The notes: generated by a model from the letters alone, not told the origin. 64,000 nt of DNA from Myxococcota bacterium (GCA_965247115.1 CBDFGR010000001.1:96001-160000), one strand, 5' to 3'. Counted from the first letter of the stretch, positions 11,950 to 63,207 are shown. Numbers and translations: made by a program.

Positions 11950-12049
11950 GTCTTGTGGGACCCGGCCGCGGGCGGCCGCGGCCACCCACCTTCGCTCAGG
12001 CCTAGCGGCCTTCGCTGCGCGCGCCGCTTTGCGGCGCTTGCGGGGTGCC
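11950..12049 (+). repeat. REP-like three-hairpin element, copy 1
   Basis: GTCTTGTGGGACCCGG...CCACCCACCTTCGCTCAGG...CCTTCGCTGCGCGCG...GCTTGC. Confidence 0.9.
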
Positions 12050-12213
12050 TTTGCGGCTGGCTTCAGGAGGTCGGGAACTGGGGTCCGCGGAGGCGCGCAG
12101 GGTAGTGCGCACTTGGCGGTTCGCTTTCGATGGGGCGGGCTCTGGTTCGCGGGGTTAGGGGTGGGGTTGCGTGTTTTCTGCGTTGGGTATCCAAACTGCA
12201 ATGTTGCTGGGAC

Positions 12214-13121
12214 ATGGCAAGGGCCTGGCTACAACTCGTGCTGCTCGGAGCGCTCACCTTTGGGGTCGGCTGTCAGAGCTTTCGTGGGGATCCGGAGCTG
12301 GCGCTGCAGAGGCTCGACGGGGACACGCTCACAGCGGTGGTGGCCGAGCTCAAGGTGCACCTTGGCGAGGATCGCTATCGTTTCCACCGCGCCGTGACCG
12401 CAGACGGCCGCGACCTGATTGCGGTATTGCTCTGGAAGCTCGACCGCCTGCAGCAGCTTCGCTCTGTGCCGCGTCAGGACTGGCAGAACGTCGACCTCGT
12501 CATCGAGTTCGCGCGTGCTCGCGCGCTCGAGCGCCTGCGCCGCTACGAAGAGGCAGGAGCGGCGTTCGCACGCGTTGCGGCGAGCGGCTCCGTGCTCGCG
12601 GCCCCGTCCCAGGAGGCGGCAAGCGTGATGACGCGCTTTGTCGGCTCCGGGGGAGAGCTCGCGCAGACGCCTCTGCAGGAGATCGAGCGGATCCAGGCGC
12701 AGCTGCTGCGCTGGCGAGCGCTCTCGCGCGAGCTCGCGGAGACCGCCTACGAACCGCTCGCGCTGGAGGAAGCGGAGCTCTGGGAGATGCTCCGCGTCGA
12801 TTGGCTCCTGCGCCACAAGGGACAGGAGCACGCCGTCGAAAGCTGCATGAGGCTCATCGAGCAGAACCGCGATTCCAAGCTCTACTCCAGGCATCTTCTG
12901 CGCCTCGGTGATCTCTAGCCGACCTCGCCGGGAGCGTGTATCTGCACGCGCAGACTCGCTGGTCCGTCGATCTTGCAGAGTATGAGCTGCTGATCGATCG
13001 GGCTCTGGCGGCGTACGAGCTCGCAGCAGAAGATCGTCGTCCCGGTCTGCGCAGCGAGGCGAGCGCTCGGATCGAGGCACTGCTTGCCACGCACCGGGGA
13101 GCTGTTGCGTATGCCCGCTGA
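12214..13121 (+). pseudogene. TPR-like lipoprotein split by a 1-bp frameshift near 12917 (real or sequencing error)
   Basis: Lipobox FGVGC; the ORF stops at LRLGDL*; adding one base gives LRLGDLYADLAGSVYL, joining ORF 12936-13121. Confidence 0.65.
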
Positions 13122-15114
13122 TCGCGACCAGGTGATCCGCGTGGGGATCCGTCTCGTCCTCGTCGCGTTTGCCGCTGGCTTGCTCGTGCTGGCCCTCTCA
13201 AACAGCGCGTTCTCACGGGAGCTTCCGGAGTCCGTCGAGGAAGCGACGAAGCTGTTGCTTGCTCACGAGCCGGTGACTGCCGAAGCGCGGGTCGACGAGG
13301 CGCGCGAGATCCTGCGAGACGAGAGGCAGGAGCGACTGACACGGATGGGGAGCGCGCTCTTCGACCTGGGCTGGAGAGGGGCGACGCCGGGCTCGCCGAA
13401 GCGGGTGCTGGACTCGGGAAGACGTCTCGCGCGCGAGATCCGACACTGGAACTCTCGCTCCTCTGCGGAAGACCGCGCACTTGCGCTGCTCGAGAGCGAT
13501 GTCCGTGAACAGGCGAGCGACGATCGGGGCCGGGCGCTCTACACCCGATTGAAGTCACGTGAGGATGAGCAGCTAGTGTCTCGCTTCGTCCGCGAGGCCG
13601 AGGTTGCACTCTCTCGGGGCGAGCTCGACACTGCGCGGCGCCGGGTCGACCGGATTGCAGCGTTGGAACCCGCGGAGCGAGGTCTCCCGGAGCTACGCCT
13701 GGCGCTCTTGGAGGCGGGCGAAAGCTCCGCCCCGCAGACGGTGGATCCTGTCGCGGGGATCGCGAGCTGGGAAGCCCCGCTCGCGGCCGCGCTGTTGACC
13801 GATGGATACGACGCCGTGCTCTCCTTTCCGGAGGCCCGAGCCGACGTAGAGCTCGCCCAGGCGGTGGCCGCCTTCCTTTCGGGGGACGGAGCAGGCGCTG
13901 TCGCCAGGCTGGAGCAGCTCGAGGACCGGGAGGGTCCACCCGCCGAGCTGGCCGCTGCCTGGCTTGCCAGCGAGAGCTTCAATCCCGAGGCAGCACTCGT
14001 GAGCTCGGCGCGACGCTTCCGCGTCCAGCGGGCACTCGGCTGGCTGGGTGGAGACGAGCTCGAGGACCACGGACTCTCGTTCTCGCGCGACGGCTACAAG
14101 GCCTGGCAGGCCGCGCTCTCGCCGCTCAACCTCGCCCTCGCTCTGCCGGCTCGGCTGATCAGTAGGCGCCGTCCAGAGTCCACCGACCTCCATGCCGCAG
14201 CGAGCGGGTACCTCGATCGCGTTCCCTTCGGGCCGAGTGCCAACGCGGCGAAGGCCTGGCTCGAACAGGGCAGTAGCGGCTTGGGGAGCCGCAACCAGCG
14301 CGCCTTCGACGATGGCCGCTTCGTCCTGCCACCCGCGACGACGCGCTACCGAGCGCACGACCCGTTGCGCCTCCTGGTGACGCCAGCGGGACTCGACGTT
14401 GTCAGCCGCGATCGCTTCACGCGCCTCGGCATCCGCATGGAGACCGACTCCGCACTGCTTCTCACGACGGTCAACGGCGAGGTCCCGAACACGGCCATCA
14501 CTATTTCGCGTGACACAGCACTGCGTCTGGCTGCAGGGCTCGCACACGGGGTGGAGCAGGGCGCGTTGATACCGGTCGCAGGAGATGCGACGGCGCTACT
14601 CGAAGGGCTCCGGCGCCTGGACGGGGACCTGCGCCGCGGAGCGAACCTGGTACTGGAGCCCTGGCACCCTCGCGCCGAGGGGGCCAGAACGGAGCTGAGT
14701 CGAGCGCTGCTGGAGGGCGGCTCGCCCGCACAGCTTCAACAGCTCCGGATCGCCCGGTCTCGCAAGTCGGTGCGGGTCGAGCGCGAGCTGTTCGCTCGCG
14801 CCACCGACTGCCCGGTGGAGGCCACGCTGTGCATCGACCGTGCGCGCTCGTATGAAGGTCGGCTGTTCGCCCGCGTCGATGACGACGGCGAGATGCGTCT
14901 GGGGCTCGGCGGGAAGCTCGCCCGTGCCAGCCTCTCACTCGAGGTCGGTCGTTCCGGCCCGAGAGCCGCCATCACGCTCCCCTTGGGTCATTGGCTCGGG
15001 ATCAGTCGCTGGCTTCCGGCCGAGCTGCACCTGAACGTGGGCGCAGACGGCGTGGCGGCGAAGCCCACGCTCGGACGCCACCGAGCCCGGGGCTACGCCT
15101 TCGCAGGTCGCTAG
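13111..15114 (+). CDS. Hypothetical exported protein (helical N-part, beta-strand-like C-terminus)
   Basis: Long ORF with hydrophobic N-terminus, overlapping the upstream gene. Confidence 0.65.
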   Translation: MPADRDQVIRVGIRLVLVAFAAGLLVLALSNSAFSRELPESVEEATKLLLAHEPVTAEARVDEAREILRDERQERLTRMGSALFDLGWRGATPGSPKRVLDSGRRLAREIRHWNSRSSAEDRALALLESDVREQASDDRGRALYTRLKSREDEQLVSRFVREAEVALSRGELDTARRRVDRIAALEPAERGLPELRLALLEAGESSAPQTVDPVAGIASWEAPLAAALLTDGYDAVLSFPEARADVELAQAVAAFLSGDGAGAVARLEQLEDREGPPAELAAAWLASESFNPEAALVSSARRFRVQRALGWLGGDELEDHGLSFSRDGYKAWQAALSPLNLALALPARLISRRRPESTDLHAAASGYLDRVPFGPSANAAKAWLEQGSSGLGSRNQRAFDDGRFVLPPATTRYRAHDPLRLLVTPAGLDVVSRDRFTRLGIRMETDSALLLTTVNGEVPNTAITISRDTALRLAAGLAHGVEQGALIPVAGDATALLEGLRRLDGDLRRGANLVLEPWHPRAEGARTELSRALLEGGSPAQLQQLRIARSRKSVRVERELFARATDCPVEATLCIDRARSYEGRLFARVDDDGEMRLGLGGKLARASLSLEVGRSGPRAAITLPLGHWLGISRWLPAELHLNVGADGVAAKPTLGRHRARGYAFAGR

Positions 15115-15115
15115 G

Positions 15116-16213
15116 TCAGAGAAGCTGTCTGAGGGCGGTGAGGAGGCGGGCGACGACTTCGGGGCGGGCGTTTTCTCCCATCAGGCCGATGCGCCAGACT
15201 CGACCGGCGAGCTTGCCGAGGCCGGCACCGATCTCGATCCCATAGTCGGAGAGTAGCTGCTTGCGGATCGTGGCTTCGTCCGCGACGGGCGGAATCACAG
15301 TGTTCAGCATGGGCAGCTGGTGGGCGGGCTCGACGAGCATTTCGAAGCCCAGCTCGGTCAAGCCCAGGACCAGGGCACGGTGGGCCTCGTAGTGGCGGGC
15401 GAAGCGCGCCTCGAGCCCCTCATCCAGGACGCGCTCGAGGGCGGCGTGGAGCGCAAGGATCATGCTGACGGGGGCAGTGTGATGGTAGACCCGCTCGTCT
15501 CCCAGGTAACGGCCGATCAGGCCGAGGTCCAGGTACCAGCTCTGCACCGGTTTCTGGCGCCCGGCGAGCCGCTCAAGCGCGCGCGGCCCGAAGGCCAGGG
15601 GAGAGAGTCCCGGCGGACACGACAGACACTTCTGTGTGCCTGAATACGCCGCGTCGATGGCCCAGTCGTCGAACCGCACAGCCATGCCCGAGAGCGAGGT
15701 CACACAGTCGAGCACGACCAGGGCGCCGGCCGCCCGCGCGGCGTGCGCCACGTCGCGCACCGGCTGGGCCACGCCCGTCGAGGTCTCGGCGTGGACAAGC
15801 GCCACCAGGTCCGGTCGCGCGGACTGCACCTCTGCGATGAGCCGCTCCGGCGGGATGATCTCGCCCATCTCCGCCTCGACGCGGATTGCCTGCGCTCCCG
15901 CCCGCTCGATGACGGAGACCATGCGCTCGCCGAATACCCCCTGGACTGCCACCAGTGCCCGATCCCCTGGCTCGAGCAGGTTGACCAGGCACGCCTCCAT
16001 CCCCGCACTCCCGGTCGCGGACAGCGGAAGGGTGAGCGCATGCTCGGTGGCGAAGACCGTGCGCAGCTGCTCCTGCACCCGGTCGAGGACGCCGAGGAAC
16101 GCCGGGTCGAGGTGTCCGATCATCGGGTGGGCCAGTGCGCGCAGCACCGGCTCCGACACGTTGCTGGGACCGGGCCCGAGGAGGAGTCGCTCCGGTAGCT
16201 CGAGATCACTCAC
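15116..16213 (-). CDS. Alanine-glyoxylate/serine-pyruvate aminotransferase (class V)
   Basis: LLLGPGPS, HAETSTG, YSGTQKCLSCPPG, YHHTAP. Confidence 0.93.
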   Translation of the reverse strand: MSDLELPERLLLGPGPSNVSEPVLRALAHPMIGHLDPAFLGVLDRVQEQLRTVFATEHALTLPLSATGSAGMEACLVNLLEPGDRALVAVQGVFGERMVSVIERAGAQAIRVEAEMGEIIPPERLIAEVQSARPDLVALVHAETSTGVAQPVRDVAHAARAAGALVVLDCVTSLSGMAVRFDDWAIDAAYSGTQKCLSCPPGLSPLAFGPRALERLAGRQKPVQSWYLDLGLIGRYLGDERVYHHTAPVSMILALHAALERVLDEGLEARFARHYEAHRALVLGLTELGFEMLVEPAHQLPMLNTVIPPVADEATIRKQLLSDYGIEIGAGLGKLAGRVWRIGLMGENARPEVVARLLTALRQLL

Positions 16214-16260
16214 AGCCCGATGATAGCGGCTTATCGGTAGACTGGGTTCGGGAGGATCGC

Positions 16261-16611
16261 GTGGACCGTCTGGACTGTCTATTTTGCAAGATTGCTGCCG
16301 GAGAGGTCCCGGCCAACCTCGCCTTCGAGAACGAGCGCGTCGTCGCCTTCACCGACATCAACCCGCAGGCTCCTACCCACCTGCAGATCATTCCGCGCGA
16401 GCACATTGCGAGCTCGCTCGAGGTCACCGAGAGCAATCGGGATTGCATCGGCGAGCTGGTCGAGGTCGCAGCGCACCTGGCGCGGGAGCTCGGTCTGGCC
16501 GATGCCGGCTATCGCCTGGTCTTCAACACGGGCGGCGCGGCAGGCCAGACCGTCTATCACATCCACCTGCACCTTCTCGGAGGACGCTCGTTCGGCTGGC
16601 CGCCGGGGTAA
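16261..16611 (+). CDS. hinT: HIT-family nucleotide-binding protein
   Basis: DCLFCKI, GQTVYHIHLHLLGG, WPPG. Confidence 0.92.
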   Translation: MDRLDCLFCKIAAGEVPANLAFENERVVAFTDINPQAPTHLQIIPREHIASSLEVTESNRDCIGELVEVAAHLARELGLADAGYRLVFNTGGAAGQTVYHIHLHLLGGRSFGWPPG

Positions 16612-16633
16612 AGCCCGCTACTGTCTTGCGAAC

Positions 16634-16921
16634 ATGTTTCGAGTCCTTTTTCTGACCCTTGTGTTTGGCGCTGTCGCGATTTGCTTCGAGCCGGGCTGGG
16701 ATGGCAAGCAGCGTACGTTCTCTCTCCGGCTGCGCGCTCCGAACGAGATTGCTCAGCTCGTGGGCCGCATCGGGACGGAGCTCGTGGCCCGCAGTGCGTC
16801 CGCGGTAGAGCGAAACGACGCGGTGCCGGCCGTTGCTTCGGGTCCTTTCGATCCCGAGCGGATCACCGAGGCCGATCGCAAGAACCTGGATCGTCTGCTC
16901 GAGGAGAAGCTGCGGGAGTAG
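16634..16921 (+). CDS. Small hypothetical membrane/exported protein
   Basis: Hydrophobic N-terminus; C-terminal ITEADRKNLDRLLEE; fills the hinT-dgt gap. Confidence 0.55.
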   Translation: MFRVLFLTLVFGAVAICFEPGWDGKQRTFSLRLRAPNEIAQLVGRIGTELVARSASAVERNDAVPAVASGPFDPERITEADRKNLDRLLEEKLRE

Positions 16922-16928
16922 AACGCGG

Positions 16929-18080
16929 TTGCGCCACTTGGAGCAGATCGAGAAGCAGGAAGATGAGCTGCTCGCCCCCTATGCATCTCGATCCAGCCAG
17001 ACTCGGGGGAGGCTTCGCAGGGAGCCACCCCACCGCTACCGCACCGATTTTCAGCGCGATCGCGATCGCGTGCTCCACTCGCGCGCCTTCCGTCGCCTGC
17101 AGTTCAAGACGCAGGTGTTCCCCTTCCAGGTTGGCGACCACTTCCGGAATCGACTCACACACACGCTAGAGGTCGCGCAGATCGCGCGCACTGTGGCCCG
17201 GGCGCTCGGCGCGAACGAGGATCTCACCGAGGCCATCGTGCTCGCGCACGACCTTGGACACCCGCCGTTCGGACACGCTGGCGAGAAGGTTCTGGACGAG
17301 CTCTCGAGCTCCGTTGGTGGGTTCGAACACAACCGCCAGAGCCTGCGGATCGTGGACTTCATCGAGCGCCGCTCGGAGCACAACGTTGGACTCAACCTGG
17401 TGCACGAGACCCGCGCCGGTTTGCTGAAGCATGGCGCCGAGTACTCCCGCTATGACCACCCGGTTCCACTGCCCGAGCTGAGCTCGCAGCCCAGCGTGGA
17501 GGCACAGATCGCGAATCTCGCCGACGAGATCGCCTATCACAGCCACGACCTGGATGATGGCCTGCGCTCCGGACTCCTGGCTTGGGATGGCCTCTGCGGT
17601 CTCTCGCTCTGGCAGCGTGCACTCGAGGATGGCGCAGCGGAAGGGCCGGAAGACCAACTATTCCTGCGCTCGCGCGTGATTGTCCGCGTCATCGATCTCC
17701 TGGCCTCGGATCTCATCGAGACGTCCGCACGTCAGCTGGCCGCGAGCGGTGTGCGCTCGGCGCAGGACGTGCTGCGGGCAGAGGCCCCGGTCGTGAGCTT
17801 CTCGGACGAAGTGCGCCAGATGACGCGCGAGGTGGCGCGCTACCTGTTCGACAACTTCTACCGACACCGTGAGGTGATCCGGATGGTGGACGAGGCGGAG
17901 CGCATCCTGCGCGACCTGTGGACCGGCTATCGCGACGACCCACGCCGCATCCCCACACACGTGCGCGATATCGAGGGCGACACGATGGGGCGAGCGATGG
18001 CAGACTACGTGGCAGGTATGACGGATCGGTTCGCCATGGACGAGCATCGCAAGCTCTTGACTCCTCCCGCGCTTGTCTGA
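16929..18080 (+). CDS. dgt: dGTP triphosphohydrolase (HD family)
   Basis: FQRDRDRVLHSRAFRRL, RNRLTHTLEV, HDLGHPPFGHAGE, DYVAGMTD. Confidence 0.96.
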   Translation: MRHLEQIEKQEDELLAPYASRSSQTRGRLRREPPHRYRTDFQRDRDRVLHSRAFRRLQFKTQVFPFQVGDHFRNRLTHTLEVAQIARTVARALGANEDLTEAIVLAHDLGHPPFGHAGEKVLDELSSSVGGFEHNRQSLRIVDFIERRSEHNVGLNLVHETRAGLLKHGAEYSRYDHPVPLPELSSQPSVEAQIANLADEIAYHSHDLDDGLRSGLLAWDGLCGLSLWQRALEDGAAEGPEDQLFLRSRVIVRVIDLLASDLIETSARQLAASGVRSAQDVLRAEAPVVSFSDEVRQMTREVARYLFDNFYRHREVIRMVDEAERILRDLWTGYRDDPRRIPTHVRDIEGDTMGRAMADYVAGMTDRFAMDEHRKLLTPPALV

Positions 18081-19221
18081 CTCCGCGCTCGAGAGGCTGC
18101 GCGAATCCTTGCCGGCGGAGCTCCGCGAGCGGCTCGCAACCGAAGAGCACGTGGATGCGTGGTTCGAGGCGGTGGGCGACGAGCTGCCGAGGGCATGGTT
18201 GCAGCTCGCGGGCGGTGAGCTCGAGCAGGTCGTGGAGCTGCTCGTCGAGGCCGGGCTCGAGTCGGCCCATGTGCTGCGCCGTCTCGACGAGCTCGCGCCG
18301 ACCAAGGCCGCCCGCAAGCTCGTTCGAGTGGCCATTCACCGCCTGAAGAGCCGCGGCATCGACGTGGAGCCGACACCGCGTGGGGTTACGCGGAGCGTGC
18401 TGCGCCCCGTGAGCGGGTCGCGAGGCTGGGGCCTCGCGACCCCCCCGGACGCGCTGGGTCGGCGTTCGCTGTTCCTGATTCTCCCGGTGCCCGGCGGCGT
18501 ACGCATGTACGAGATCGGGGTCTCCGACGTGGATGGCATTGCCCACCTGGAGGTCTTTCGGGCGAAGCGCCGGGATGCGCGGGCCTTCGGGCGGCGTCTG
18601 CGCGAGCGCGACGGTGTGTCCACCGTCGAGGTCGAGGCGGGCGAGCTGCGCGCGCTCGTTGCGCGATCGAAGGACTCTGCCGAGACTCACGTCGATCCGA
18701 AGCTCCTCGAGGAGGTGGTGAGAGATCCCGGCGGGGAGACCCCGGGCGAACGGCTGCGTCGCGAGCTGGCGCCCGCGGTGCAGGAGCTCGATGACCAGAC
18801 GGCGGATGAGCTCGTCGGCGCCGCAGTCCGGGCGGCCGAGCTGCAGGCGTGGCCGCCCGTGGGAGAGGCCGTTGACGGGCTCGCGGCGCGGATCGAGGCG
18901 ATCGAGCACAGCCCGCTGGTGCTGACCGGGCTGCAGCAGACCGAGCGCCGCATCGAGCTGATCCGGGAGTCCCGGGGCCGCGTGCTCGACTCGAGCTACC
19001 GAGAGCGCGTGGCAGTCCGCCTCGAGGAGTCCGCTGTCTTCCTGCGCGAGGCTGGCAAGCTCGAGACCGGGACCGCGGCGCTCCAGGTCGCGGGCCGGGT
19101 GCGTCACGCGGAGGATCCGCTCCACGTATCGTTCCTGGAGCTCATGCTGACCATCGCCCTGGACGCGGCTGCGAAGCGCGTCGACAAGCGCGACCCCACG
19201 CGTCTGATCGTTCCGCGCTGA
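18073..19221 (+). CDS. Hypothetical protein
   Basis: 382-aa ORF overlapping the dgt end, genome-typical codon usage. Confidence 0.7.
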   Translation: MSDSALERLRESLPAELRERLATEEHVDAWFEAVGDELPRAWLQLAGGELEQVVELLVEAGLESAHVLRRLDELAPTKAARKLVRVAIHRLKSRGIDVEPTPRGVTRSVLRPVSGSRGWGLATPPDALGRRSLFLILPVPGGVRMYEIGVSDVDGIAHLEVFRAKRRDARAFGRRLRERDGVSTVEVEAGELRALVARSKDSAETHVDPKLLEEVVRDPGGETPGERLRRELAPAVQELDDQTADELVGAAVRAAELQAWPPVGEAVDGLAARIEAIEHSPLVLTGLQQTERRIELIRESRGRVLDSSYRERVAVRLEESAVFLREAGKLETGTAALQVAGRVRHAEDPLHVSFLELMLTIALDAAAKRVDKRDPTRLIVPR

Positions 19222-19298
19222 GCTCTGCACTGGAACCGGCCGGCCGGTAATGCAACCGTGTGTCCGGATCTTTGGCTAGGGCCTTGCGGACCGCCACC

Positions 19299-21848: not shown

Positions 21849-22533
21849 CGGGCGCGGCGCCGACGCCCAGAGTCTGCTCGTCAAGGAGATCTATCGCTCC
21901 ATTCAGGGAGAGTCTAGCCTCGCGGGCTGGCCCTGCAGCTTCGTGCGGACGACCGGCTGCGACATTCGCTGCGTCTACTGCGACGAGGAGCACGCCTTTC
22001 GAGGCGGCGAGCGGCTGACACTCGACGAGATTGTAAAGCGCGTAGAGGCGCTGGAGGTGAGCGGGCTCGTGCCGGGACCCACGAGGCTCGTGGAGATCAC
22101 GGGGGGCGAGCCCCTGCTCCAGCGCGGCGTGCCCGAGCTGGCGCGACGTCTGCTCGACTCGGGCTGCGAGGTGCTGATCGAGAGCGGGGGGCACCGCGAC
22201 ATCACGGAGCTCGACCCCCGGACTCGACTCATCCTCGACGTCAAGACTCCTGGGAGTGGCATGGTCGAGCACAATCATCTCGAGAACCTGACGCGCCTCC
22301 GCGAGCGCGACGAGCTCAAGTTCGTGCTGTGCGACCGCACCGACTACGAATGGGCACGCTCGTTCCTGCGCGAGCACCCTCTAGATGCCCGGATCCCCGT
22401 GCACTTCTCGCCGGTCCACCCTGGCCTTGCGCCGGACGAGCTCTGCGCCTGGATCCTTGCAGACGGACTGCCCGTGCGGCTCAACCTGCAGCTGCACAAG
22501 TACATCTGGGGGTCTGACGCCCGCGGCGTCTAG
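21841..22533 (+). CDS. queE: 7-carboxy-7-deazaguanine synthase (radical SAM)
   Basis: EIYRSIQGES, CDIRCVYCD, TGGEPLLQ, QLHKYIW. Confidence 0.93.
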   Translation: MASGRGADAQSLLVKEIYRSIQGESSLAGWPCSFVRTTGCDIRCVYCDEEHAFRGGERLTLDEIVKRVEALEVSGLVPGPTRLVEITGGEPLLQRGVPELARRLLDSGCEVLIESGGHRDITELDPRTRLILDVKTPGSGMVEHNHLENLTRLRERDELKFVLCDRTDYEWARSFLREHPLDARIPVHFSPVHPGLAPDELCAWILADGLPVRLNLQLHKYIWGSDARGV

Positions 22534-22632
22534 TCTTGTGGGACCCGGCCGCGGGCGGCCGCGGCCACCCACCTTCGCTCAGGGCTACGCCCTTCGCTGC
22601 GCGCGGCGCGGTTCGCGCCGCTTGCTGGGTGC
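22533..22632 (+). repeat. REP-like three-hairpin element, copy 2
   Basis: Same consensus as copy 1; starts at the queE stop codon. Confidence 0.9.
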
Positions 22633-22714
22633 TCTTACTGGCGTGCGGCTGCCCACTCTCGCTTCTTTGTGGCACGCGTCTCGTGCGGCGTTTTCGCGGG
22701 GACGGCGGGGGGAG

Positions 22715-24600
<1,886 letters not shown>

Positions 24601-26864: not shown

Positions 26865-26871
26865 CTTGTGG

Positions 26872-26965
26872 GTCTTGTGGGACCCGGCCGCGGGCGGCCG
26901 CGGCCACCCACCTCCGCTCAGGCCGAAGGCCTTCGCTGCGCGCGCCGCGTTCCGCGGCGCTTGCA
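26872..26965 (+). repeat. REP-like three-hairpin element, copy 3
   Basis: Same consensus; tail motif GCGCTTGC reiterated up to ~27010. Confidence 0.9.
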
Positions 26966-27035
26966 AAGGAGTCCGCGCGCTTGCGGGGGAGGTCCCGCGG
27001 GGCGCTTGCAAGGGTGGGGTGGTCGTGGCGGTGGG

Positions 27036-27791
27036 TTAGAGGAGTTTCAGGTACTCGATGAGTTGGTGGCGCTCGATGTCGTTGAGCTCGACGTCTGTTT
27101 CCCGGAGCATGGCGTCGGTGACGGACTCCAGGGTTGGCCAGCGGCCGTCGTGGCCGTAGGGAGGGGTGGAGGTGAGGCCGCGCAGGGTCGGGGTGTCGAT
27201 CTTTAGGCCCGTTCCCATGTCGTGGCGCTCGGGAAGTGTGAAGGCGGGGGCAGGGTGACAGTCATCGCAGGCCGCCTTCTTGTATACGGCGGCGCCCCGC
27301 CGGGAAGACAGTGTGGCCGGCTCTATGGGAGTGCCGTCGGGCTCGAGGCGGCCGCGGTCGAACGGCTCGAAGGCCAGCACGTAGGCCTCGAGCGCCGCGA
27401 GGTCGTAGTCGGCGAGGGTGGAGCCGCCCATCTCGATGGACAGCATGCGCTTCAGAGTGGAGCGGACGTCAGCGAGGCTGCCGTCCCACAGGTACGGTGG
27501 CGTCTGCCACAGGCCGCGCAGGGCGGGCACGTTGCGGGCGCCGGGAGTGCCGGGCTCGACCTCGACGCCGGCTCGGTAGGTGAGTCCGTTCGAGCCCCCG
27601 CCGGGATGGCAACTGGCGCAAGGGCGCTGGCCATCCGCCGAAGTGCGGGGATCCATGAAGACGAAGGCTCCGCGCTGCACGAGGTCCGGGTTGAGCGCGG
27701 GCGGCTCCAGCGGAACGATGGGCGGTGTCTCGCAGCCGACGAGCAGCCACGGGACCAGCAAGAGAAGTCTAGCTCTGCTCCAGCAGCGCAT
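27036..27791 (-). CDS. Di-heme cytochrome c peroxidase/MauG-like lipoprotein
   Basis: CASCH and CDDCH, RNVPALRGL...PYLWDGS, TPTLRGL...PYGHDG; lipobox LVGC. Confidence 0.8.
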   Translation of the reverse strand: MRCWSRARLLLLVPWLLVGCETPPIVPLEPPALNPDLVQRGAFVFMDPRTSADGQRPCASCHPGGGSNGLTYRAGVEVEPGTPGARNVPALRGLWQTPPYLWDGSLADVRSTLKRMLSIEMGGSTLADYDLAALEAYVLAFEPFDRGRLEPDGTPIEPATLSSRRGAAVYKKAACDDCHPAPAFTLPERHDMGTGLKIDTPTLRGLTSTPPYGHDGRWPTLESVTDAMLRETDVELNDIERHQLIEYLKLL

Positions 27792-29250
27792 GCTTCTGCA
27801 CCTTCCCCGAGGCTGTACGAGGCAACTCGGCCACGACGACCACGTCGAGTGGAACCTTGAACGCCGCCAGTCGCTTTCGCGTCCACTCGAGAAGCTCGGC
27901 CGTGTCGAGGGGGGGGTGGGCGGGAACGACGTACGCGCGGCCGCTTTCGCCCCAGCGGTCGTCCGGAACCCCGACCACGGCCACCTCCGACACGTTCTCA
28001 TGCCCCTCCACGACACGCTCCACCTCGGCAGGATAGACGTTCTCTCCGCCGCTGATGAAGAGCTCTGCGCGGCGGCCGACGAGAGTGACGAACCCGTCCT
28101 CGTCCATGACTCCGAGATCGCCCGTGCGGTGCCACCCGTCGAGGCGCGAGGCCTCGGTTGCCTCGGGCTGGCCCCAGTAGCCCGACATCACGATCCGACC
28201 GCGGACTAGGATCTCGCCTTCGTGGCCCGGCGTTACCGTGGCGCCCTCCGCATCTGCGATCCGCAGCTCGCAGTTCCCGACCGGCCGGCCCACAGAGCCC
28301 GCGTTTCGGATCACGTCTTCCGTGTCAAGGCAGCAAAGGATCGAGGTCTCGGTCTGGCCGTACCCCTGCTTGAGGCGTACTCCGGCGTCGAAGAAGCGGT
28401 GGATGGTCGCGACGTCGAGCGGCGCTCCCGCGCCGAAGGCGAAGCGCAGGCTCCGCCAGCAGTCTCCGCGTAGGCCGGCCTCGAGCATGCGTCGGTACAT
28501 CACAGGAACGGCTCCGAGCAACGTAGCCTGGTGTCGGCCGATGCACTCCTGCAGCCCGACCGGGTCGAAGCGATCCACCAGCACGATCGTGGCACCCGCG
28601 AACAGCGTCGGCACCGAGAGGATCTTGAGCCCGTACGAGTGGAACAGCGGGACCGGCACCACGACGACGTCCTCGGGCCGCAGTCCCAGGTACACCTCCG
28701 CGTTGAGCGTGTTGCAGAGCGTCTTCCGGTGCGGAAGGACGGCGCCCTTCGGTAGCCCGGTAGTGCCACTCGTGTACATGATCGTCTGCGCCGTCTCCCC
28801 GCCGGCTGCCAACGCGGGCTCCTCCGCGCTCGTGGGTAGCTCCGCACAAAGCTCGTCCGCACTGAGGAGCTCCATGCCGCAGTCGGCTGGCATGTCGACG
28901 TCTCGAGCGCGGATCACGAGGCGCGGCCGACAGTCCTGGATCTGAAAGCCGAGCTCGGGCGGTGCGAGCCGTGTATTCAACGGCACACTGATAGCTCCGA
29001 GCTTCGCCGCGGCGAAGTAGACCGCGAGCGTCAACGGCTCGCTGCGCAGCGCCATCGCCACCCGCTCCCCGAGCCCGACCCCACGCAGCTCCAGGCTGCG
29101 CGCGACCCTGTTCGTGAGTGCATTCAGCTCGCAGTACGAGAAGCACTCCCCGGTCGCCTCGACCGAGATCGCCGGATGCTCCGGTCGCTCCGCGGCGCGA
29201 TGCGTGAGCCAGCTCCCAATGTTCACGTCGGGACGACGAAGAGCATCCAT
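27769..29250 (-). CDS. Acyl-CoA synthetase (AMP-forming; FadD/MenE-like)
   Basis: YTSGTTGLPKG, GYGQTET, TGDLG, GGENVYPAEVE, PRTASGKVQK. Confidence 0.93.
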   Translation of the reverse strand: MDALRRPDVNIGSWLTHRAAERPEHPAISVEATGECFSYCELNALTNRVARSLELRGVGLGERVAMALRSEPLTLAVYFAAAKLGAISVPLNTRLAPPELGFQIQDCRPRLVIRARDVDMPADCGMELLSADELCAELPTSAEEPALAAGGETAQTIMYTSGTTGLPKGAVLPHRKTLCNTLNAEVYLGLRPEDVVVVPVPLFHSYGLKILSVPTLFAGATIVLVDRFDPVGLQECIGRHQATLLGAVPVMYRRMLEAGLRGDCWRSLRFAFGAGAPLDVATIHRFFDAGVRLKQGYGQTETSILCCLDTEDVIRNAGSVGRPVGNCELRIADAEGATVTPGHEGEILVRGRIVMSGYWGQPEATEASRLDGWHRTGDLGVMDEDGFVTLVGRRAELFISGGENVYPAEVERVVEGHENVSEVAVVGVPDDRWGESGRAYVVPAHPPLDTAELLEWTRKRLAAFKVPLDVVVVAELPRTASGKVQKHALLEQS

Positions 29251-29376
29251 GCTCGCGGCAGTATGACTCGCCGCACACCCAACCGCGCAAGCGCCGCGCC
29301 CCACCGGCCAGCTCCCACAGCCAACGCACTCCCCAGTTCAGACTCCGGAGAGAACGGCCAACCTCCTACGGGGCTT

Positions 29377-29480
29377 GGCACCCATGCAAGCGCCGCGGAA
29401 CGCGGCGCGCGCAGCGAAGGGCAAAGCCCTGAGCGAAGGTGGGTGGCCCGCGACCGCTCGCGGGCCGGGTCCCACAAGAC
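29377..29480 (-). repeat. REP-like three-hairpin element, copy 4
   Basis: Reverse complement matches the consensus; abuts the kinase stop codon. Confidence 0.9.
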
Positions 29481-31520
29481 TTAGAAGCTCGCGTTGTCGA
29501 TGAAGTGCGATAGGGCCTCGGCCATGTCGTTCGCGGACTCGAAGCGGTCCTCGGGCTCCTTCTCGCAGGCCGTGCGGATGACCTGCGAGATCACGTCTGG
29601 CAGCTCCGGCTGGTGCTGCCGGGGGTCCGGCAACGTCAGATGGAGCTGCTGATCGACGATGTCCTCCCCTCCGAAGGGGCGGCGGCCCGTCGCCATCTCG
29701 AACATGGAGATGCCGAGCGCGTACAGATCGGCCCTGCCGTCGAGCTCGCTGCCAAGAATCTGCTCGGGCGGCATGTACTGCGGCGTCCCCTTCGCCTTGT
29801 TCAGTCCTTCGCCGCCCGCCTCCACCGCTCGGCTGATCCCGAAGTCCATCAGCTTCGCCTTGCCGTCGGGCGCGATAAGCATGTTGCTTGGCTTGATGTC
29901 GCGGTGCACCACATTTTGGGTGTGCGCGAAGGCGAGCGCGTGACAGATCTCGCGGCCGATCTCCGCCACCCGCAAGGGACGCAGGGCCTGCCGCTGCTTC
30001 GAGTCCGGAACGGTCATCAGCTCTCGGACCGTCCGGCCCTGCACGTACTCCATCACGATACAGGGCTGGGCGCCGATCACCGCGACGTCATAGATGTGGA
30101 CGATGTTCGGATGGTTCATGGCCGCCGCGGAGCGGGCCTCCTGGCGGAACATCTTGAGGGCTGCGGGATTCGACGCCAGCTCCGCCGGCAGGAACTTGAT
30201 TGCGACCGGTCGCTCGAGCTCCTTATCCCAGGCGCGGTAGACGATACCCATGCCGCCGCGTCCGATCTCCTCGCGCAGGTCGTAGCGCTCGGTATGGTAC
30301 GCGGCAGCGCTCTCGCTAGAGGCGCCCCAGACACGCTCCTGTAGACGTTCGATTCGCGCTGCGACGTCGCCGAAGCTGGAGTCCACGTCGACGATCTCGT
30401 TCAGCACGTCGAGCGCCCCCATGGCATCCTCCGAGCGCTCGAGCGTCTCGGCGAGCTGGGCGAGCAGCTCGAGGTCATCCTTGCTGGTCGGGCTCTCGGG
30501 GCGGATCGAGAGCAGTGTGTCGCGCGCACGATCGAACAGCCCCTTCTCGTGAAAGATGCGGGCCAGGAGCTGGCTCGCCGGTCGGCGATCGACGGAGTCG
30601 TCGGGGACGGTCCGGAGCACGTCAGCGGCCCGTTCGTAGGAGCCCAGCTCGTAGAAGGCATTCGCAGCGGCCAGGTGGTGGCCGAGTCGTACGCTCATGG
30701 AGGCCGCCCGCATGCGATTGCCGGCCCGCTCGAAGCTGTCGCGCGCCTTTTCGATCGCCCCCGCCTTCTCGTAGGCCAGCGCCGCTCGCGACCAGGCACC
30801 ATCCTGGGCGTAGGCTTCCGCAGCGGCGTCCAACTCGTCGCGCTCCTCCAGCAGCTCCGCCGCACGCGAGAGCTCCCCCGCCTCCATCCAGCACTCGGCG
30901 GCGCGCTTCGAGGCACCCGCGGCCTGAAACTGCTCCGCGGCGCGGCGGAGTACGGCGGGTGAACGCCCCCTGGCCGCGAGCAGAGCCTCGCCCGCCTCGA
31001 CCCCCATGCTCGCCCTGGCGTACAGGCGCGCGGCGCTCTCGGCGTCTCCGATCGTGCTCAGGATCTCAGCGGCGGTGTCGAGCTGGTCCGCCCGCTCGTA
31101 GAGCTCGGCCGCCTCGCGATCGCAACCGAGCTGGTGCAGGCAAGTGGCCGCATCCGCCCACTGTCCCGCCGCCTCGAAGTAGTGGGCCGCCTCCGCCAGA
31201 CGACCGATTTCCCGGTACGTTTCCGCGGCTCTTACCGGCTGCTTCAGGCGCAGGTGGCACTGCGCGACCTTGGCCAGCTCGCCCGCGTTCTGAAACAGCG
31301 CCAGCGCACTCCGGACCTGACCCTCGGAGAGGCGCAGCTCGGCCGCCTGTTTGTAGTTCCCGGCCTCGATCAGGCGGCGCACGCTCGCGTCGATGCTCTC
31401 GGCGGCCGCAGGTGCGCGCTGGCGCCGCGCGACCCACGCCCCGGCCACGAGCAGGGTGCCAAGCAGCAGCGCGACGCCGACGAGGACGATGTCCATGGCG
31501 AGCATCTCGAACTCGCTCAC
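29481..31520 (-). CDS. Membrane-anchored Ser/Thr protein kinase with TPR/SNAP-like repeats
   Basis: N-terminal TM, AAELYERA-type repeats, IGRGGMGIVY, VAIK, HRDIKPSN, DFG, GTPQYM. Confidence 0.92.
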   Translation of the reverse strand: MSEFEMLAMDIVLVGVALLLGTLLVAGAWVARRQRAPAAAESIDASVRRLIEAGNYKQAAELRLSEGQVRSALALFQNAGELAKVAQCHLRLKQPVRAAETYREIGRLAEAAHYFEAAGQWADAATCLHQLGCDREAAELYERADQLDTAAEILSTIGDAESAARLYARASMGVEAGEALLAARGRSPAVLRRAAEQFQAAGASKRAAECWMEAGELSRAAELLEERDELDAAAEAYAQDGAWSRAALAYEKAGAIEKARDSFERAGNRMRAASMSVRLGHHLAAANAFYELGSYERAADVLRTVPDDSVDRRPASQLLARIFHEKGLFDRARDTLLSIRPESPTSKDDLELLAQLAETLERSEDAMGALDVLNEIVDVDSSFGDVAARIERLQERVWGASSESAAAYHTERYDLREEIGRGGMGIVYRAWDKELERPVAIKFLPAELASNPAALKMFRQEARSAAAMNHPNIVHIYDVAVIGAQPCIVMEYVQGRTVRELMTVPDSKQRQALRPLRVAEIGREICHALAFAHTQNVVHRDIKPSNMLIAPDGKAKLMDFGISRAVEAGGEGLNKAKGTPQYMPPEQILGSELDGRADLYALGISMFEMATGRRPFGGEDIVDQQLHLTLPDPRQHQPELPDVISQVIRTACEKEPEDRFESANDMAEALSHFIDNASF

Positions 31521-56241: not shown

Positions 56242-56298
56242 GCGCCTCAATCAGGGCAGGTATCCCGCCGATATGCAGGGCGTAGGTATAGGCCCGAC

Positions 56299-56970
56299 AT
56301 GCCGCAGCTGAATCTAGAAACGCGCGAGATCGCGCTCAAGATCGTCTACTACGGACCGGCACGCTCCGGGAAGACGACCAACCTGCAGCAGATCCATCAT
56401 CTGCTGTCGCCCGAGTCGCGCGGCGAGATGGTCACGCTGGATACCCAGGATGACCGCACGCTCTACTTCGACTTCCTCCCCGTCGAGTTCGGTGTCGAAG
56501 GTGGCTATAAGGTGCGGCTCAAGCTCTTCACTGTCCCCGGTCAGGTGCTCCACCGTTCGACGCGACGCGTCGTCCTCGCGGGTGCCGACGCCGTCGCCTT
56601 CATCGCGGACTCCCAGCGCTCGACGGCCTCCGCCAACGCCTACTCCTACCGCGACCTCGAGACGAACCTCCGGCTGAACGGGCTGGCCATCGACGAGATT
56701 CCGCAGGTCGTGCAATTCAACAAGCGCGACCTGCAGGACATCAAGTCGCTGGAAGAAATCCGGGAGGCCTGGAAGGGCACGGGCATCCCCACCGTGCCTG
56801 CCTCGGCGACGCAGGGCGTCGGCGTGCTCGAGACGCTCGAGGCGCTGCTGGTTCGCCTGTATCGCCACCTGGACCACGGCCACTCCTTCTCCTCGAAGTT
56901 CGGTCTCGATGAGGAGCGCTTCCTCGCTGGCGTGATGCGCAACCACGTCGCGGAGGAGAAGCCAGAGTAG
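56299..56970 (+). CDS. MglA/SofG-like small GTPase
   Basis: KIVYYGPARSGKTTNL, DRTLYFDF, TVPGQV, NKRD. Confidence 0.92.
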   Translation: MPQLNLETREIALKIVYYGPARSGKTTNLQQIHHLLSPESRGEMVTLDTQDDRTLYFDFLPVEFGVEGGYKVRLKLFTVPGQVLHRSTRRVVLAGADAVAFIADSQRSTASANAYSYRDLETNLRLNGLAIDEIPQVVQFNKRDLQDIKSLEEIREAWKGTGIPTVPASATQGVGVLETLEALLVRLYRHLDHGHSFSSKFGLDEERFLAGVMRNHVAEEKPE

Positions 56971-57096
56971 GTCTGTGGGACCCGGCGCGCGGGCGGCCCT
57001 CCCGCGGGTCAGCGACCCGCGGGCCGCTGACGGCCACCCACCTTCGCTCGCCTCCGGCTCGCTGCGCGCGCCGCTATCGCGCCGCTTGCAGGGTGC
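56971..57096 (+). repeat. REP-like element, copy 5 (variant with enlarged hairpin 1)
   Basis: GTCTGTGGGACCCGG...GGCCACCCACCTTCGCTC...CTCGCTGCGCGCGCC...GCTTGCAGGGTGC. Confidence 0.85.
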
Positions 57097-57120
57097 TCGA
57101 GAGTGACCGCCGACCCACAT

Positions 57121-57222
57121 GCACCCTGCAAGCGCCGCGATAGCGGCGCGCGCAGCGAAGGGCAAAGCCCTGAGCGGAGGTGGGTGGGCCGCGGCTGCCC
57201 GCGGCCCGGGTCCCGCAAGTAC
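57121..57222 (-). repeat. REP-like element, copy 6 (inverted partner of copy 5)
   Basis: Reverse complement matches the consensus; 24-nt spacer from copy 5. Confidence 0.85.
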
Positions 57223-57226
57223 AGAA

Positions 57227-57255
57227 TTGACGCGAGAATCAGCCCCTGATACGTT
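57227..57255 (+). promoter_or_regulatory. Putative sigma70 promoter of ribBA
   Basis: TTGACG, 17-nt spacer, TACGTT with extended TGn. Confidence 0.5.
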
Positions 57256-57334
57256 GCGGACGTGTATCTACTCGGCCCTCGGGTAGTGTGCGTGCCCCGG
57301 AGGTCCCCCCCTGGGCACCCCGTGGAGGACCTCT

Positions 57335-58603
57335 TTGGGCAACCCAAGCAGCGGGGAGGGGACCGTCCCCCCGACTGAGAGCCGAAGCGAAATCTTCACG
57401 CAGGTCGAGCGGGCTCTGGAAGATATCGTCGCCGGGAAGATGATCATCCTCGTCGACGACGAGGACCGGGAGAACGAAGGCGACCTGTGCATGGCCGCCG
57501 ACCTCTGCTCGGCGGAAGCCGTCAACTTCATGGCGCTACACGGCCGCGGCCTGATCTGCCTGGCACTCACCCCGGAGCGCGCGCAGGAGCTCGAGCTGTC
57601 GATGATGGTGCCAGACGCCGCAAACACCACGCCCTACGGCACGGCCTTCACGGTCTCGATCGAAGCTCGCGACGGGGTGACGACTGGTATCTCCGCCGCA
57701 GATCGGGCGCGCACCATCCAGGTTGCGATGGACCCGGCCAGCACGCCCTCCGACCTGAGCCGGCCGGGCCACGTGTTCCCGCTGATCGCGAAGCCGGGCG
57801 GCGTGCTGCGTCGCACCGGTCAGACTGAGGGTGCCGTTGACCTGGCCCGGCTGGCCGGTCTGCAGCCGGCCGGCGTGATCTGCGAGATCATGAACCAGGA
57901 CGGAACGATGGCGCGCCGGCCGGACCTCGAGATCTTCGCCCGCGAGCGCGGTCTGCGCATCCTCTCGATCGCGGAGCTGATCAAGTACCGGACGCGAACC
58001 GAGCAACTCGTTCGGCGCTCGGCGGAGGCCACGCTGCCGTCGCAGTTCGGCGATTTCCGCGCAGTCGTGTTCAAAAACGAGATCGACTTCGTCGACCACA
58101 TTGCGCTGGTGCGCGGCGAGATCAAGCGCGACGTGCCCACGCTGGTGCGCGTGCACAGCGAGTGCCTGACGGGCGATGCGTTCGGCTCCCTTCGCTGCGA
58201 CTGCGGCGAGCAGCTCCAGACCGCGCTCAAGCTGATCCAGGAAGAGGGCACCGGAGTGCTGCTCTACATGCGCCAGGAGGGGCGCGGGATCGGACTCGTG
58301 AACAAGATCAAGGCCTACGGACTGCAGGAGAACGAAGGGCTCGACACCGTTGAGGCGAACGAGCGCCTGGGCTTCCCACCGGACATGCGGGACTTCGGGG
58401 TCGGGGCGCAGATTCTCGCCAACCTCGGGGTATCTCGGATGAGGTTGCTCACGAACAACCCGTCGAAGCGAGCTGGTCTCGAGGGCTACGACCTGGAGAT
58501 CGTCGACCAGATCCCGCTCGAAGCTCGGCCCAACGAGGAGAACTTCGAGTATCTGAGGACCAAGCGGGAGAAGCTTGGGCATCTGCTGAATCTGATGAAC
58601 TGA
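57335..58603 (+). CDS. ribBA: Bifunctional DHBP synthase/GTP cyclohydrolase II
   Basis: [46 protein letters not shown]. Confidence 0.97.
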
Positions 58604-58685
58604 GCGATCGAAGCCCGCAGGTTTCTCGAGGTCTCGTACTCGCGTATGCTCGGCCAGTAGGAGAATCCACGGGCTGGAGGAAGAC

Positions 58686-59672: not shown

Positions 59673-59682
59673 GCGAGCGTCA

Positions 59683-61092: not shown

Positions 61093-61106
61093 AGGCTTCG
61101 AGCGCC

Positions 61107-61220
61107 GTCGGAGGGCGGGGAACGTCCCCCGGCGGACTCCGCTCCTTGCGTGCACAGGGGCATCGCTCGCCTCGAGCACCGCTACCACAGTCCTCCGGGG
61201 GACGTTCCCCGCCCTCCGAC
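61107..61220. repeat. 32-bp inverted repeat pair with 50-bp spacer
   Basis: GTCGGAGGGCGGGGAACGTCCCCCGGCGGACT at 61107-61138 and its complement at 61189-61220, one mismatch. Confidence 0.9.
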
Positions 61221-61251
61221 GTCTTGCCGGACCCCAGTGTGCTAAGGGCCC

Positions 61252-61289
61252 AACAGAAAACCCCCCGGCACCGTAGTGCCGGGGGGTTT
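61252..61289 (-). terminator. Intrinsic terminator, possibly bidirectional
   Basis: CCCCCCGGCAC-loop-GTGCCGGGGGG followed by TTTTCTGTT on the minus strand and TTT on the plus strand. Confidence 0.85.
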
Positions 61290-61423
61290 GAAGGGTCGGA
61301 GAGGGCGGCGGATCACTTGTGGGGGGTGAGAGGTTGGACATTTCAAGACCGAAATGCCGACTCCGCCGCCTTCTCCGTAAGAACTCTCTGAGTGACTCCT
61401 GTGTGGGTCAGCTGCGACCCGAC
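61255..61423 (-). ncRNA. Candidate structured small RNA (~170 nt)
   Basis: Lies between a sigma70-like promoter and a terminator; 14/15-bp stem enclosing two hairpins; no convincing ORF. Confidence 0.55.
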
Positions 61424-61429
61424 GGACAC

Positions 61430-61457
61430 ATTATGCATCGGTGGCCAGAGATGTCAA
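61430..61457 (-). promoter_or_regulatory. Putative sigma70 promoter of the candidate sRNA
   Basis: TTGACA (61457-61452), 16-nt spacer, CATAAT (61435-61430), AT-rich upstream region. Confidence 0.6.
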
Positions 61458-61661
61458 TTCCTTTTCTATAGCGTCCGATGCCGTACCGAGTGTCGTCGAA
61501 TAGGCTCGAAAGTACATGAATAATTCATCTCTATCTCACTGGAAAATAAGGACAATCCGTTCCCCTTGAGCGCTCCCGGTCTTCCGCCTGGGTGCGAACT
61601 CTCGACCCCGGTACTGGCGCGGATGGCCGGTTCGAACCGCTCCGCTACCCTCGCACACGCC

Positions 61662-63050
61662 ATGTCCGGTCGTTTTCAGATCCGCACCTTCGGCTGTCAG
61701 ATGAACCAGCACGACGCCGAGAAGATGTCGAATCTCCTCCACCACGAGGGCATGCGCCCGACCAGCGACGCCGGTGAGGCGAACCTGATCCTGGTGCACA
61801 CCTGCTCGATCCGCGAGAAGGCCGAGCAGAAGCTCTACTCGGAGCTCGGAGCGTTGCTTCGCCGGAAGCGCCGGGATCCCGAGCTCATCATCGGCGTCGG
61901 GGGCTGCGTCGCCCAGCAGGAAGGTGGCACGCTGCTCCGGCGCTTCCCGGAGCTCGATTTTGTCTTCGGGCCGCAGAACCTGGTGCACCTACCGGTGCTG
62001 GTCTCGAACGCGAGGGCTCGGATTCGCGACCTGCGAGTGGACTACGACGATGAGCCCACGGCGCGCTTCGAGCTGCCCGAGCGGCACCCCGAGTACACCT
62101 CGCCCACTCTCGGGCGTGCCTTCGTCACTGTGATGGAAGGCTGCGACCTGTTCTGCACCTACTGCGTCGTGCCCAGGACCCGCGGCCGCGAGGTGAGCCG
62201 TCCGAGTCCGGCGATCCTCGGTGAGGTGGCCGGACTCGCCGAGCGGGGTGTCGTGGAGGTCACGCTGCTCGGCCAAACGGTCAACGCCTACGGTCGGCGT
62301 CGACCGGGGCGCGTCGAGGGCGAGCTCCCCTTCGGCGAGCTCATCCGGCGCGTCGGGTCGACGCGGGGCATCGAGCGCGTTCGTTTCACCAGTCCCCACC
62401 CGAGCTTCGTCACCCAGGATCTGCTCCGGGCCTATGCGGACGTTCCTGAGCTCTGTCCGCATATTCACCTGCCGGTCCAGAGTGGCTCGACGCAAGTGCT
62501 GAAGCAGATGAACCGGCGCTACGACAGGGACGGGTACCTGCGCGTCGTGTCCGAGCTGCGCAGGGCGCGTCCGGAGCTGGCGATTACGACCGATTTGATC
62601 GTCGGCTTTCCTGGCGAGACACGGGCCGACTTCGCCGAGACCATGAGCCTGATGCGAGAGGTCGGCTTCGTCGACAGCTTCTCTTTCAAGTACTCGGCTC
62701 GCCCGGGAACGCCGGCCGCGCGCCGCGGCCTCGTCGGTGTGGACCCCGCCGAGTCGCAGGCGCGCCTGGAGGAGCTCCACGCGCTCCAGCGGGAACTCAC
62801 GCTCCACGCGCATCAGAAGCGGGTCGGCGAGGTCATCCCCGTCCTCGTCGAAGGAGCAAGCCGCCGGGGCGGCCCCCAGCTTCGCGGCCGCGGCCCCTAC
62901 AACCGCGTTGTGAACTTCACGGGCCCCCCACACATCCGCCCGGGCACCATCCAAGACGTCCACATCACCGCCGCCTCCCCCCACTCCCTCCTGGGCCACC
63001 ACGCCGACCCGACCACCCCCCAAGAACTCCCCCTCCTCGCCCCCCACTAG
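61662..63050 (+). CDS. miaB: tRNA-2-methylthio-i6A37 synthase
   Basis: TFGCQMN, TCSIREKAE, GCDLFCTYC, HLPVQSGS, DLIVGFPGET. Confidence 0.97.
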   Translation: MSGRFQIRTFGCQMNQHDAEKMSNLLHHEGMRPTSDAGEANLILVHTCSIREKAEQKLYSELGALLRRKRRDPELIIGVGGCVAQQEGGTLLRRFPELDFVFGPQNLVHLPVLVSNARARIRDLRVDYDDEPTARFELPERHPEYTSPTLGRAFVTVMEGCDLFCTYCVVPRTRGREVSRPSPAILGEVAGLAERGVVEVTLLGQTVNAYGRRRPGRVEGELPFGELIRRVGSTRGIERVRFTSPHPSFVTQDLLRAYADVPELCPHIHLPVQSGSTQVLKQMNRRYDRDGYLRVVSELRRARPELAITTDLIVGFPGETRADFAETMSLMREVGFVDSFSFKYSARPGTPAARRGLVGVDPAESQARLEELHALQRELTLHAHQKRVGEVIPVLVEGASRRGGPQLRGRGPYNRVVNFTGPPHIRPGTIQDVHITAASPHSLLGHHADPTTPQELPLLAPH

Positions 63051-63104
63051 CCCCCCACACCCCCCGCCCGAGCAGATACCCCGCCTCCCTCCCCCCCGGG
63101 TGCA

Positions 63105-63207
63105 GGCACCCTGCAAGCGTCGCGGAACGCGGCGCGCGCAGCGAAGGGCCTGGCCCTGAGCGAAGGTGGGTGGCGCGCGACCGCTCGCGCGCCGGGTCCC
63201 ACAAGAC
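63105..63207 (-). repeat. REP-like three-hairpin element, copy 7
   Basis: Reverse complement matches the consensus. Confidence 0.9.

Follow-up and report, generated by a model that had tools for sequence, protein, structure and literature searches.

The closest described systems are the REP/BIME elements with their RAYT enzymes and the repeats of the TIRYT group. The in vivo role of RAYT and TIRYT enzymes has long been open, the evidence being mostly in vitro. A cut by an enzyme of the HUH type leaves a 3′-OH, and the 5′ end of the downstream strand is capped by the enzyme tyrosine. As described in the accessible parts of PMC3333891 and PMC8266576, REP/BIME elements are high-copy intergenic hairpins in tandem and inverted arrangements, with a dynamic presence, and an HUH Y1 enzyme nicks single-stranded DNA near the repeat; TnpA_REP cleaves such DNA on either side of a REP, at a distance as well, and tandem arrays are proposed to arise by rolling-circle-like synthesis primed at the nick. 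The repeat family considered here (family A) is similar in copy number, location, arrangement and dynamic presence but, unlike REP/RAYT systems, it has no adjacent Y1 gene and its consensus lacks the GTAG tetranucleotide 5′ of the hairpin. Downstream of E. coli REPs, the part of PMC6061677 dealing with them gives C over G, which is the opposite sign to that reported below. Ssn nucleases are single-strand nucleases recognising dispersed hairpin repeats, and flank skew is not mentioned in the accessible part of PMC11893778; in contrast, our genome had a single GIY-YIG match, in a 669-aa frame. GIY-YIG and DUF559 partners were rejected as candidates, with one long-frame match each and neither of them linked to the repeats.

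We analysed a stretch of 64,000 nt (hereafter the window) from an uncultured Myxococcota lineage, the genome of which (G000) is 5.17 Mb in length with 66% GC; genes were called by a self-trained gene caller. Family A is a 100-nt three-hairpin element with seven copies within the window. A profile search of the whole genome gave 201 matches, 163 of them near full length and 153 of these 163 intergenic. Same-orientation neighbours at most 600 bp apart numbered 27, and the pairs within the same distance were tail-to-tail in 21 cases and head-to-head in none. GTGG (within GTGGGAC) was found in 46 of 70 copies and GCGG in 10 of 70; an Rfam search of the window matched tRNA only. Two further families were found: family B (30 nt, 94 copies), present in the spacers of tail-to-tail family A pairs, and family C (a 115-nt long hairpin, 31 copies). 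The three families occur in composites, and the motif CTTG(T/G)GGGAC at the 5′ end is common to family A and family B, the latter being the inverted repeat of a transposase gene. For comparison we used a sister genome (G002, 87% identity), sampled over 2.34 Mb of its 5.8 Mb and chosen partly for repeat density. The features of the window are the following, with skews on the element strand at 30-230 bp from the element for the five flanks named in the initial annotation:

11950..12045, + strand: family A element, directly 3′ of a stop codon; the orthologous G002 site has no element
12046..12300, + strand: C-poor footprint reaching into the 5′ end of a gene on the same strand; skew +0.27; bases confirmed by a contig
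22532..22629, + strand: family A element; G002 has two tandem copies at the site
22630..22900, + strand: footprint over the thiC 3′ end; skew +0.23
22715..24439, - strand: thiC, convergent; last ~65 codons recoded
26872..26967, + strand: family A element; the G002 site is empty
26968..27250, + strand: footprint over the 3′ end of the cytochrome c gene; skew +0.39
27036..27761, - strand: di-haem cytochrome c-like gene, convergent
29150..29330, - strand: remaining footprint of the 29382 copy; skew +0.18, the extension being partly included
29331..29380, - strand: conserved 3′ repeat extension from a composite module in which, at other sites, the transposase inverted repeat is found; inherited, not footprint
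29382..29481, - strand: family A element
56970..57096, + strand: long family A variant, first half of a tail-to-tail pair that is absent in G002
57124..57221, - strand: family A element, second half of the pair
61107..61221, + strand: family C element, 115-nt long hairpin; own footprint weak (+0.10)
61623..63050, + strand: miaB, convergent; 3′ end recoded, with C at 40 of the last 50 third positions
62850..63108, - strand: strongest footprint of the window; skew +0.51
63109..63207, - strand: family A element, also present in G002

At about 15115 of the window there is no element in G000 and one in both G002 and run X5, hence presence varies within the species.

The initial annotation had described the sequence 3′ of the unpaired elements as C-poor on the element strand, and all five flanks were so, with skews from +0.18 to +0.51 against a standard deviation of 0.089 for random windows. 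At 29270-29376 this holds for the footprint, while the part within 29331-29380 belongs to the repeat extension. Genome-wide, we considered the 110 family A copies without another copy within 1.5 kb downstream. In successive 50-bp bins on the 3′ side, the element-strand GC skew was +0.10, +0.21, +0.18, +0.14 and +0.08, and it fell to 0.005 at 400-450 bp; the 58 plus-strand and the 52 minus-strand copies behaved alike. The skew is specific to the element, polar and dependent on its orientation, as had been claimed. A positive 3′ skew was present in 92 of 105 copies before masking and, with all repeat modules masked, in 60 of 70 (mean +0.147), 26 of the 70 exceeding the 95th percentile set by 3472 gene-boundary windows free of elements (mean +0.008). 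Around solitary copies (n = 59) the footprint was strictly polar, with C changed by -0.085 at 60-180 bp on the 3′ side and by +0.01 to +0.025 on the 5′ side. The C-poor zone is a real strand-specific footprint of about 250 bases on the 3′ side of the repeats.

The skew was similar in four gene layouts (+0.17, +0.16, +0.12 and +0.16; n = 19, 40, 19 and 20), hence the footprint is independent of gene layout, and it was also similar by a local replication-skew proxy. The flanks of 51 tRNAs gave +0.03. When the genome was scanned without bias in 200-bp windows, the 15 with the strongest skew (|z| ≥ 5.5) included 13 that adjoined family A, B or C; at |z| ≥ 4.5 this was so for 36 of 56, compared with 1.9% of random windows. 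Skews linked to replication and transcription arise from deamination of single-stranded DNA, the exposed strand being richer in G than in C and in T than in A; the footprint has the same signature but is local (250 bp), anchored to repeats and independent of layout, and it is about ten times the replichore skew of G000 (0.01-0.03). An origin-like symmetric switch at family A disappeared after the exclusion of neighbouring B and C copies, and selection for G-quadruplexes was rejected, the motif being present in just 3 of 70 flanks. Sequence variants of family A did not predict the skew (best P = 0.08), and the seven A-like loci obtained by pattern scans, a small number, ranged from 0.0 to +0.26.

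The footprint extends into coding sequence. It had been claimed that convergent genes change codon usage in these zones: among the Glu/Gln/Lys codons of thiC, A is the final base in 8 of the last 13 but in only 8 of the other 66, the figure across the genome being 12.7%, and the codon runs quoted for the ends of the cytochrome c gene and miaB were exact. Element-free gene ends, which had been proposed as the control, did not show the effect, since the third-position skew was -0.12 at 797 element-free convergent ends and -0.48 at 35 element-facing ends; a generic gene-end effect is thus ruled out. In codon-matched comparisons the proportion of C changed by -0.120 in convergent genes, twice the shift in genes reading away from the element (-0.057, CI -0.089 to -0.029; 25 of 33 loci). 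In four genes the orthologues of other genera, near which no element was detected, had a normal C content, with G000 < G002 < outgroups; precisely, the third-position C counts in about 65 codons of G000, G002 and the outgroups were 9, 20 and 23-34 for thiC, 7, 12 and 18-28 for miaB, and 8, 17 and 22-31 for aroC. Judged by these outgroup and G002 orthologues, C loss is the derived state, as the initial annotation had supposed. The silent codons of neighbouring genes are rewritten by the footprint, and small repeats can in this way alter the choice among synonymous codons in essential genes (thiC, miaB, aroC).

G002 carries all three families with the same polarity as G000, and the skew over the first 100 bp was +0.06 vs +0.17 for family A, +0.11 vs +0.26 for B and +0.17 vs +0.23 for C (G002 vs G000). 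Substitutions were compared in 79 alignable flanks of the two genomes. At sites where both have the element, C loss exceeded gain in G000 in 39 vs 8 of 49 loci (485 vs 219 changes); at sites occupied in G000 only, there were 217 C losses and 137 gains, but by locus the ratio was 16 vs 11 of 30 (P = 0.44). Changes polarised near elements gave, in small numbers, 11 C losses and 3 gains on the G000 branch, compared with 2 and 6 on the G002 branch; seven orientation-flip sites gave no informative result. The net changes were C>T, C>G, A>G and, slightly, T>G. On the element strand of the thiC 3′ end we counted 18 C>T vs 3 T>C and 5 C>G vs 1 G>C relative to G002, and at the aroC 5′ end the ratios to the reverse change were 8/2 for C>T, 7/2 for C>G and 7/1 for A>G. 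The C loss that had been proposed is hence correct, with the amendment that C goes to G as often as to T and that some A is lost too. An early hint of dinucleotide-specific loss (CT/CA nick sites) was dropped, no sharp dinucleotide motif being found in the later substitution analysis.

Diversity-generating retroelements and other targeted hypermutators also make local, element-guided changes in coding DNA; the footprint differs in having no hypervariability and in being directional and mostly silent. Divergence beside elements was 1.1-1.3 times background (fourfold positions 0.31-0.33 vs 0.28, twofold 0.18-0.19 vs 0.14, amino acids 0.142 vs 0.115), which indicates a directional bias and not hypermutation; the diversification suggested by the initial annotation is not supported.

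The genome had been proposed for a search for Y1 transposases. We obtained 17 matches in G000, one of which (L001) is bracketed by a repeat family with the same scar. Precisely, family B forms its terminal inverted repeat, a 34-nt inverted pair of which one half lies 82 bp upstream of the core and the other 407 bp downstream. The Y1 core scored 34.4 bits with PF01797, above the cut-off, and 76.2 bits with NF047646, just under the cut-off of 80; a C-terminal HTH (HTH_23 / Bac_DnaA_C) was matched at E-values of 5e-4 and 6e-3, below the cut-offs and in the frame after a frameshift. The stretch GGGGACGG of the family B repeat agrees with the motif GGGG[AT][CG]A[CG] at 7 of 8 positions. Compared with TIRYT / TnpA_Y1 subclass 2.1, as characterised in the accessible parts of PMC3733652 and PMC6006769, the likeness lies in the Y1 core and the bracketing inverted repeats, which form a dispersed family (94 copies) and come close to the GGGG type, together with a possible C-terminal HTH; as far as its sequence allows, L001 with family B fits this subclass. 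It differs in the 250-bp outward skew recoding host genes and in the composites with A and C, the activity of L001 itself being putative. The outward flanks of L001, which cover the 3′ end of mutY and the 5′ end of aroC, were skewed by +0.42 and +0.41, and family B copies without family A gave +0.25 (n = 33). Family C has a 3′ footprint like that of family A; an effect on both of its sides (n = 14) was not borne out by a codon-matched test (C -0.002, 21 loci).

L001 is frameshifted in the G000 strain and in run X1, and it is one base shorter in X3 and X4, in which the frame would presumably be open. A second Y1 allele, about 84% identical and with another C-terminal part, was found at the same aroC-mutY site in X1, X3 and X4 (L001:1005-2180); X5 had no contig covering the gene. 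The mutY flank of X3, with 22 differences in 170 bp, was left out, since it goes with the divergent allele and may be a recombined tract. A miniature element of about 200 nt with family B at both ends lies between inverted A copies in G000, e.g. at C3:154321-154700 and C2:1005465-1005880, and in the window a short perfect palindrome resembling the family B core is present at 57358-57370, upstream of ribBA.

The elements are of known kinds; the footprint and its link with TIRYT loci seem not to have been described. In the openly accessible main texts that were searched, we met with no account of a one-sided C-poor zone next to REP or TIR repeats. No flank base skew of the sign of family A is described in the REP/RAYT papers as far as their accessible parts extend, and the word "skew" is absent from those parts of PMC6006769 and PMC3733652.

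Our preferred reading, to which we assign a probability of about 0.5, is that Y1 nicking at the repeat exposes the strand on its 3′ side to deamination, the C-poor zone being a mutational scar. A Y1/HUH transposase would nick at the repeat, 200-300 nt would be peeled off by strand-displacement synthesis or a helicase, and the displaced strand would remain single-stranded for a time, in which its cytosines could deaminate, before it re-anneals or is re-ligated. Displacement of the capped strand would expose precisely the C-poor strand, on the correct side. An exposed single strand shows G over C, T over A, loss of A and no sharp context. C>T and A>G would thus build up, while C>G could come from abasic-site bypass and/or from later T>G under the GC-favouring pressure of the genome. 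At fourfold positions, the sites occupied in G000 only had T 0.17 and G 0.50, and the shared sites T 0.08 and G 0.69 (n = 155 and 130), although this contrast was slight in the larger set; T-rich younger sites and G-rich shared sites are what a ratchet of C>T and then T>G would give. The most tentative step is that a Y1 enzyme may also act on family A, to which it is tied indirectly by the shared 5′ motif, the composites with B and C and the gradient across genomes given below. Of the polar, local, element-directed mutagenesis first proposed, the polarity and the derived C loss stand; the action of a Y1 enzyme on family A, and a mutational in place of a selective cause, are putative.

Some observations count against nicking followed by deamination. 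Uracil glycosylases are present in G000, C>G as common as C>T exceeds the yield of plain deamination, and the shift in convergent genes is twice the co-directional one, whereas a process blind to transcription predicts no such difference. The distance of the Y1 genes from family A, the locus counts at G000-only sites, the skew of empty sites, the few genomes behind the gradient, the frameshift in L001 and the sign at GTAG REPs also weigh against it. Mutation and selection may both contribute. The wider claim, that Y1/HUH transposases are chronic local mutators at hundreds of dispersed repeats and recode host genes by their deamination scar, may hold, but we favour it less. If true, the scar would preserve a fossil record of enzyme activity, giving its sites, its strand and its lineage, and it would assign enzyme-less repeat families such as A to Y1 enzymes. 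A polar footprint readable from sequence and tracking the presence of the enzyme would make in vivo RAYT/TIRYT activity testable from genomes alone.

With regard to such tracking, the 3′ skew of family A was +0.17 in G000 (17 Y1 matches), +0.06 in G002 (4), +0.05 in G010 (0) and +0.01 in G011 (0), a gradient based on few related genomes. The Y1 search gave no match in G010 (100% complete), G011 or G023, the A-like hairpins of which had per-locus skews of +0.036, +0.028 and +0.030 (n = 22, 7 and 6). The A-like elements of G010 (L255-L284) have a different 5′ end without the GGGAC motif, and a tandem sub-repeat of their own. G002 has no L001 homologue, the syntenic site holding only a collapsed repeat. 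In other genomes, a GGGG-type inverted pair was present at 18 of the 29 best L001-homologue loci, and at these 18 the outward skew was +0.119 near and 0.000 far from the pair (near > far in 24 of 33 flanks, Wilcoxon P = 3e-4). Within G000, the nearest Y1 gene is 3.1 kb from any family A copy, with none within 3 kb. A second Y1 family of G000 comprises 16 loci (e.g. L002-L006) of about 236 aa with a conserved upstream palindrome; third positions in its genes have a low C content (0.21-0.34 vs 0.45) and the sign switches at the upstream end of the genes, but being paralogues they are not independent. Beside classical GTAG REPs of Stenotrophomonas (G413, L251-L254; a sample of 80 kb plus 8 loci) the 3′ flanks were C-rich, with a skew of -0.10 (n = 21); this opposite sign indicates that the footprint is not universal to REPs. 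The Stenotrophomonas sign is that expected for Rho zones.

Selection at the RNA level is an unlikely alternative, by which the opposite strand would be kept C-rich and G-poor as a Rho-loading or unstructured zone before the hairpin, ending convergent or antisense transcripts. Rho is encoded in G000, but also in G002, in which the footprint is much weaker. Such selection would agree with a shift greatest in convergent genes, with the removal of C by any silent route open to it (C>G at fourfold and C>T at twofold sites) and with a divergence hardly raised; however, the C-rich zone in convergent genes is mostly translated, the intergenic skew is equally +0.2 where there is no convergent gene, and genes that read away from the element show recoding toward T/G at their 5′ ends. 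The geometry is also at odds with it, since a same-strand gene lies just upstream of 92 of the 163 near-full-length copies, its transcript enters C-poor sequence, and such a gene running into family A is itself barely changed (C +0.03). In E. coli, according to the part of PMC6061677 on this subject, the C-rich rut zone sits downstream of the stem-loop on the transcript.

We regard as slightly less likely still a host process that exposes or resynthesises the strand, be it a helicase, a primosome or a hairpin-cutting nuclease at the repeats, or short repeat-fired transcripts leaving the non-template strand exposed. Three different repeat families carry the scar and B alone is tied to a Y1 gene, as a host process would allow, and error-prone resynthesis, for which there are three Y-family polymerase matches, could explain C>G. 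But single-copy hairpins of similar stability (arm 12-19, 168 intergenic loci) had no footprint, by which a generic hairpin effect is ruled out, and the very similar hairpins of G010, G011 and G023 reached only +0.03. Moreover, gaps left by hairpin-stalled polymerases, or 5′ resection of a break, would be expected to expose cytosines with the opposite polarity.

It is improbable that causation runs in reverse, with elements entering or persisting at sites already G/T-rich on one strand. The presence of elements is highly dynamic (56 of 100 mapped family A copies of G000 had no G002 counterpart), and empty orthologous sites were skewed in both genomes, mildly so in G002 opposite G000-only elements and by +0.22 at G000 sites without an element where G002 has one (n = 293). 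These empty sites are explained by past occupancy, as at about 15115 of the window, where one strain has an element and G000 none; in addition, the same codons have normal C in outgroup orthologues, and at shared sites it was G000 that lost more C than G002.

An artefact, be it an error of sequencing or assembly beyond hairpins or the counting of G-rich repeat extensions as flank, is scarcely credible, since, although a conserved extension does follow some family A copies, the effect survives repeat masking and recurs in a separate genome, reading frames are kept with silent sites favoured, and the read error envisaged in the initial annotation is ruled out by independent contigs, which match 12015-22557 with 0 differences (X1, public contigs possibly of the source sample) and, from the different study X5, cover 26940-27839 and 28348-29411 with 15 and 11 differences.

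Elsewhere in the window, a 15-bp unit is repeated about 16 times in an array at positions 8326-8670.
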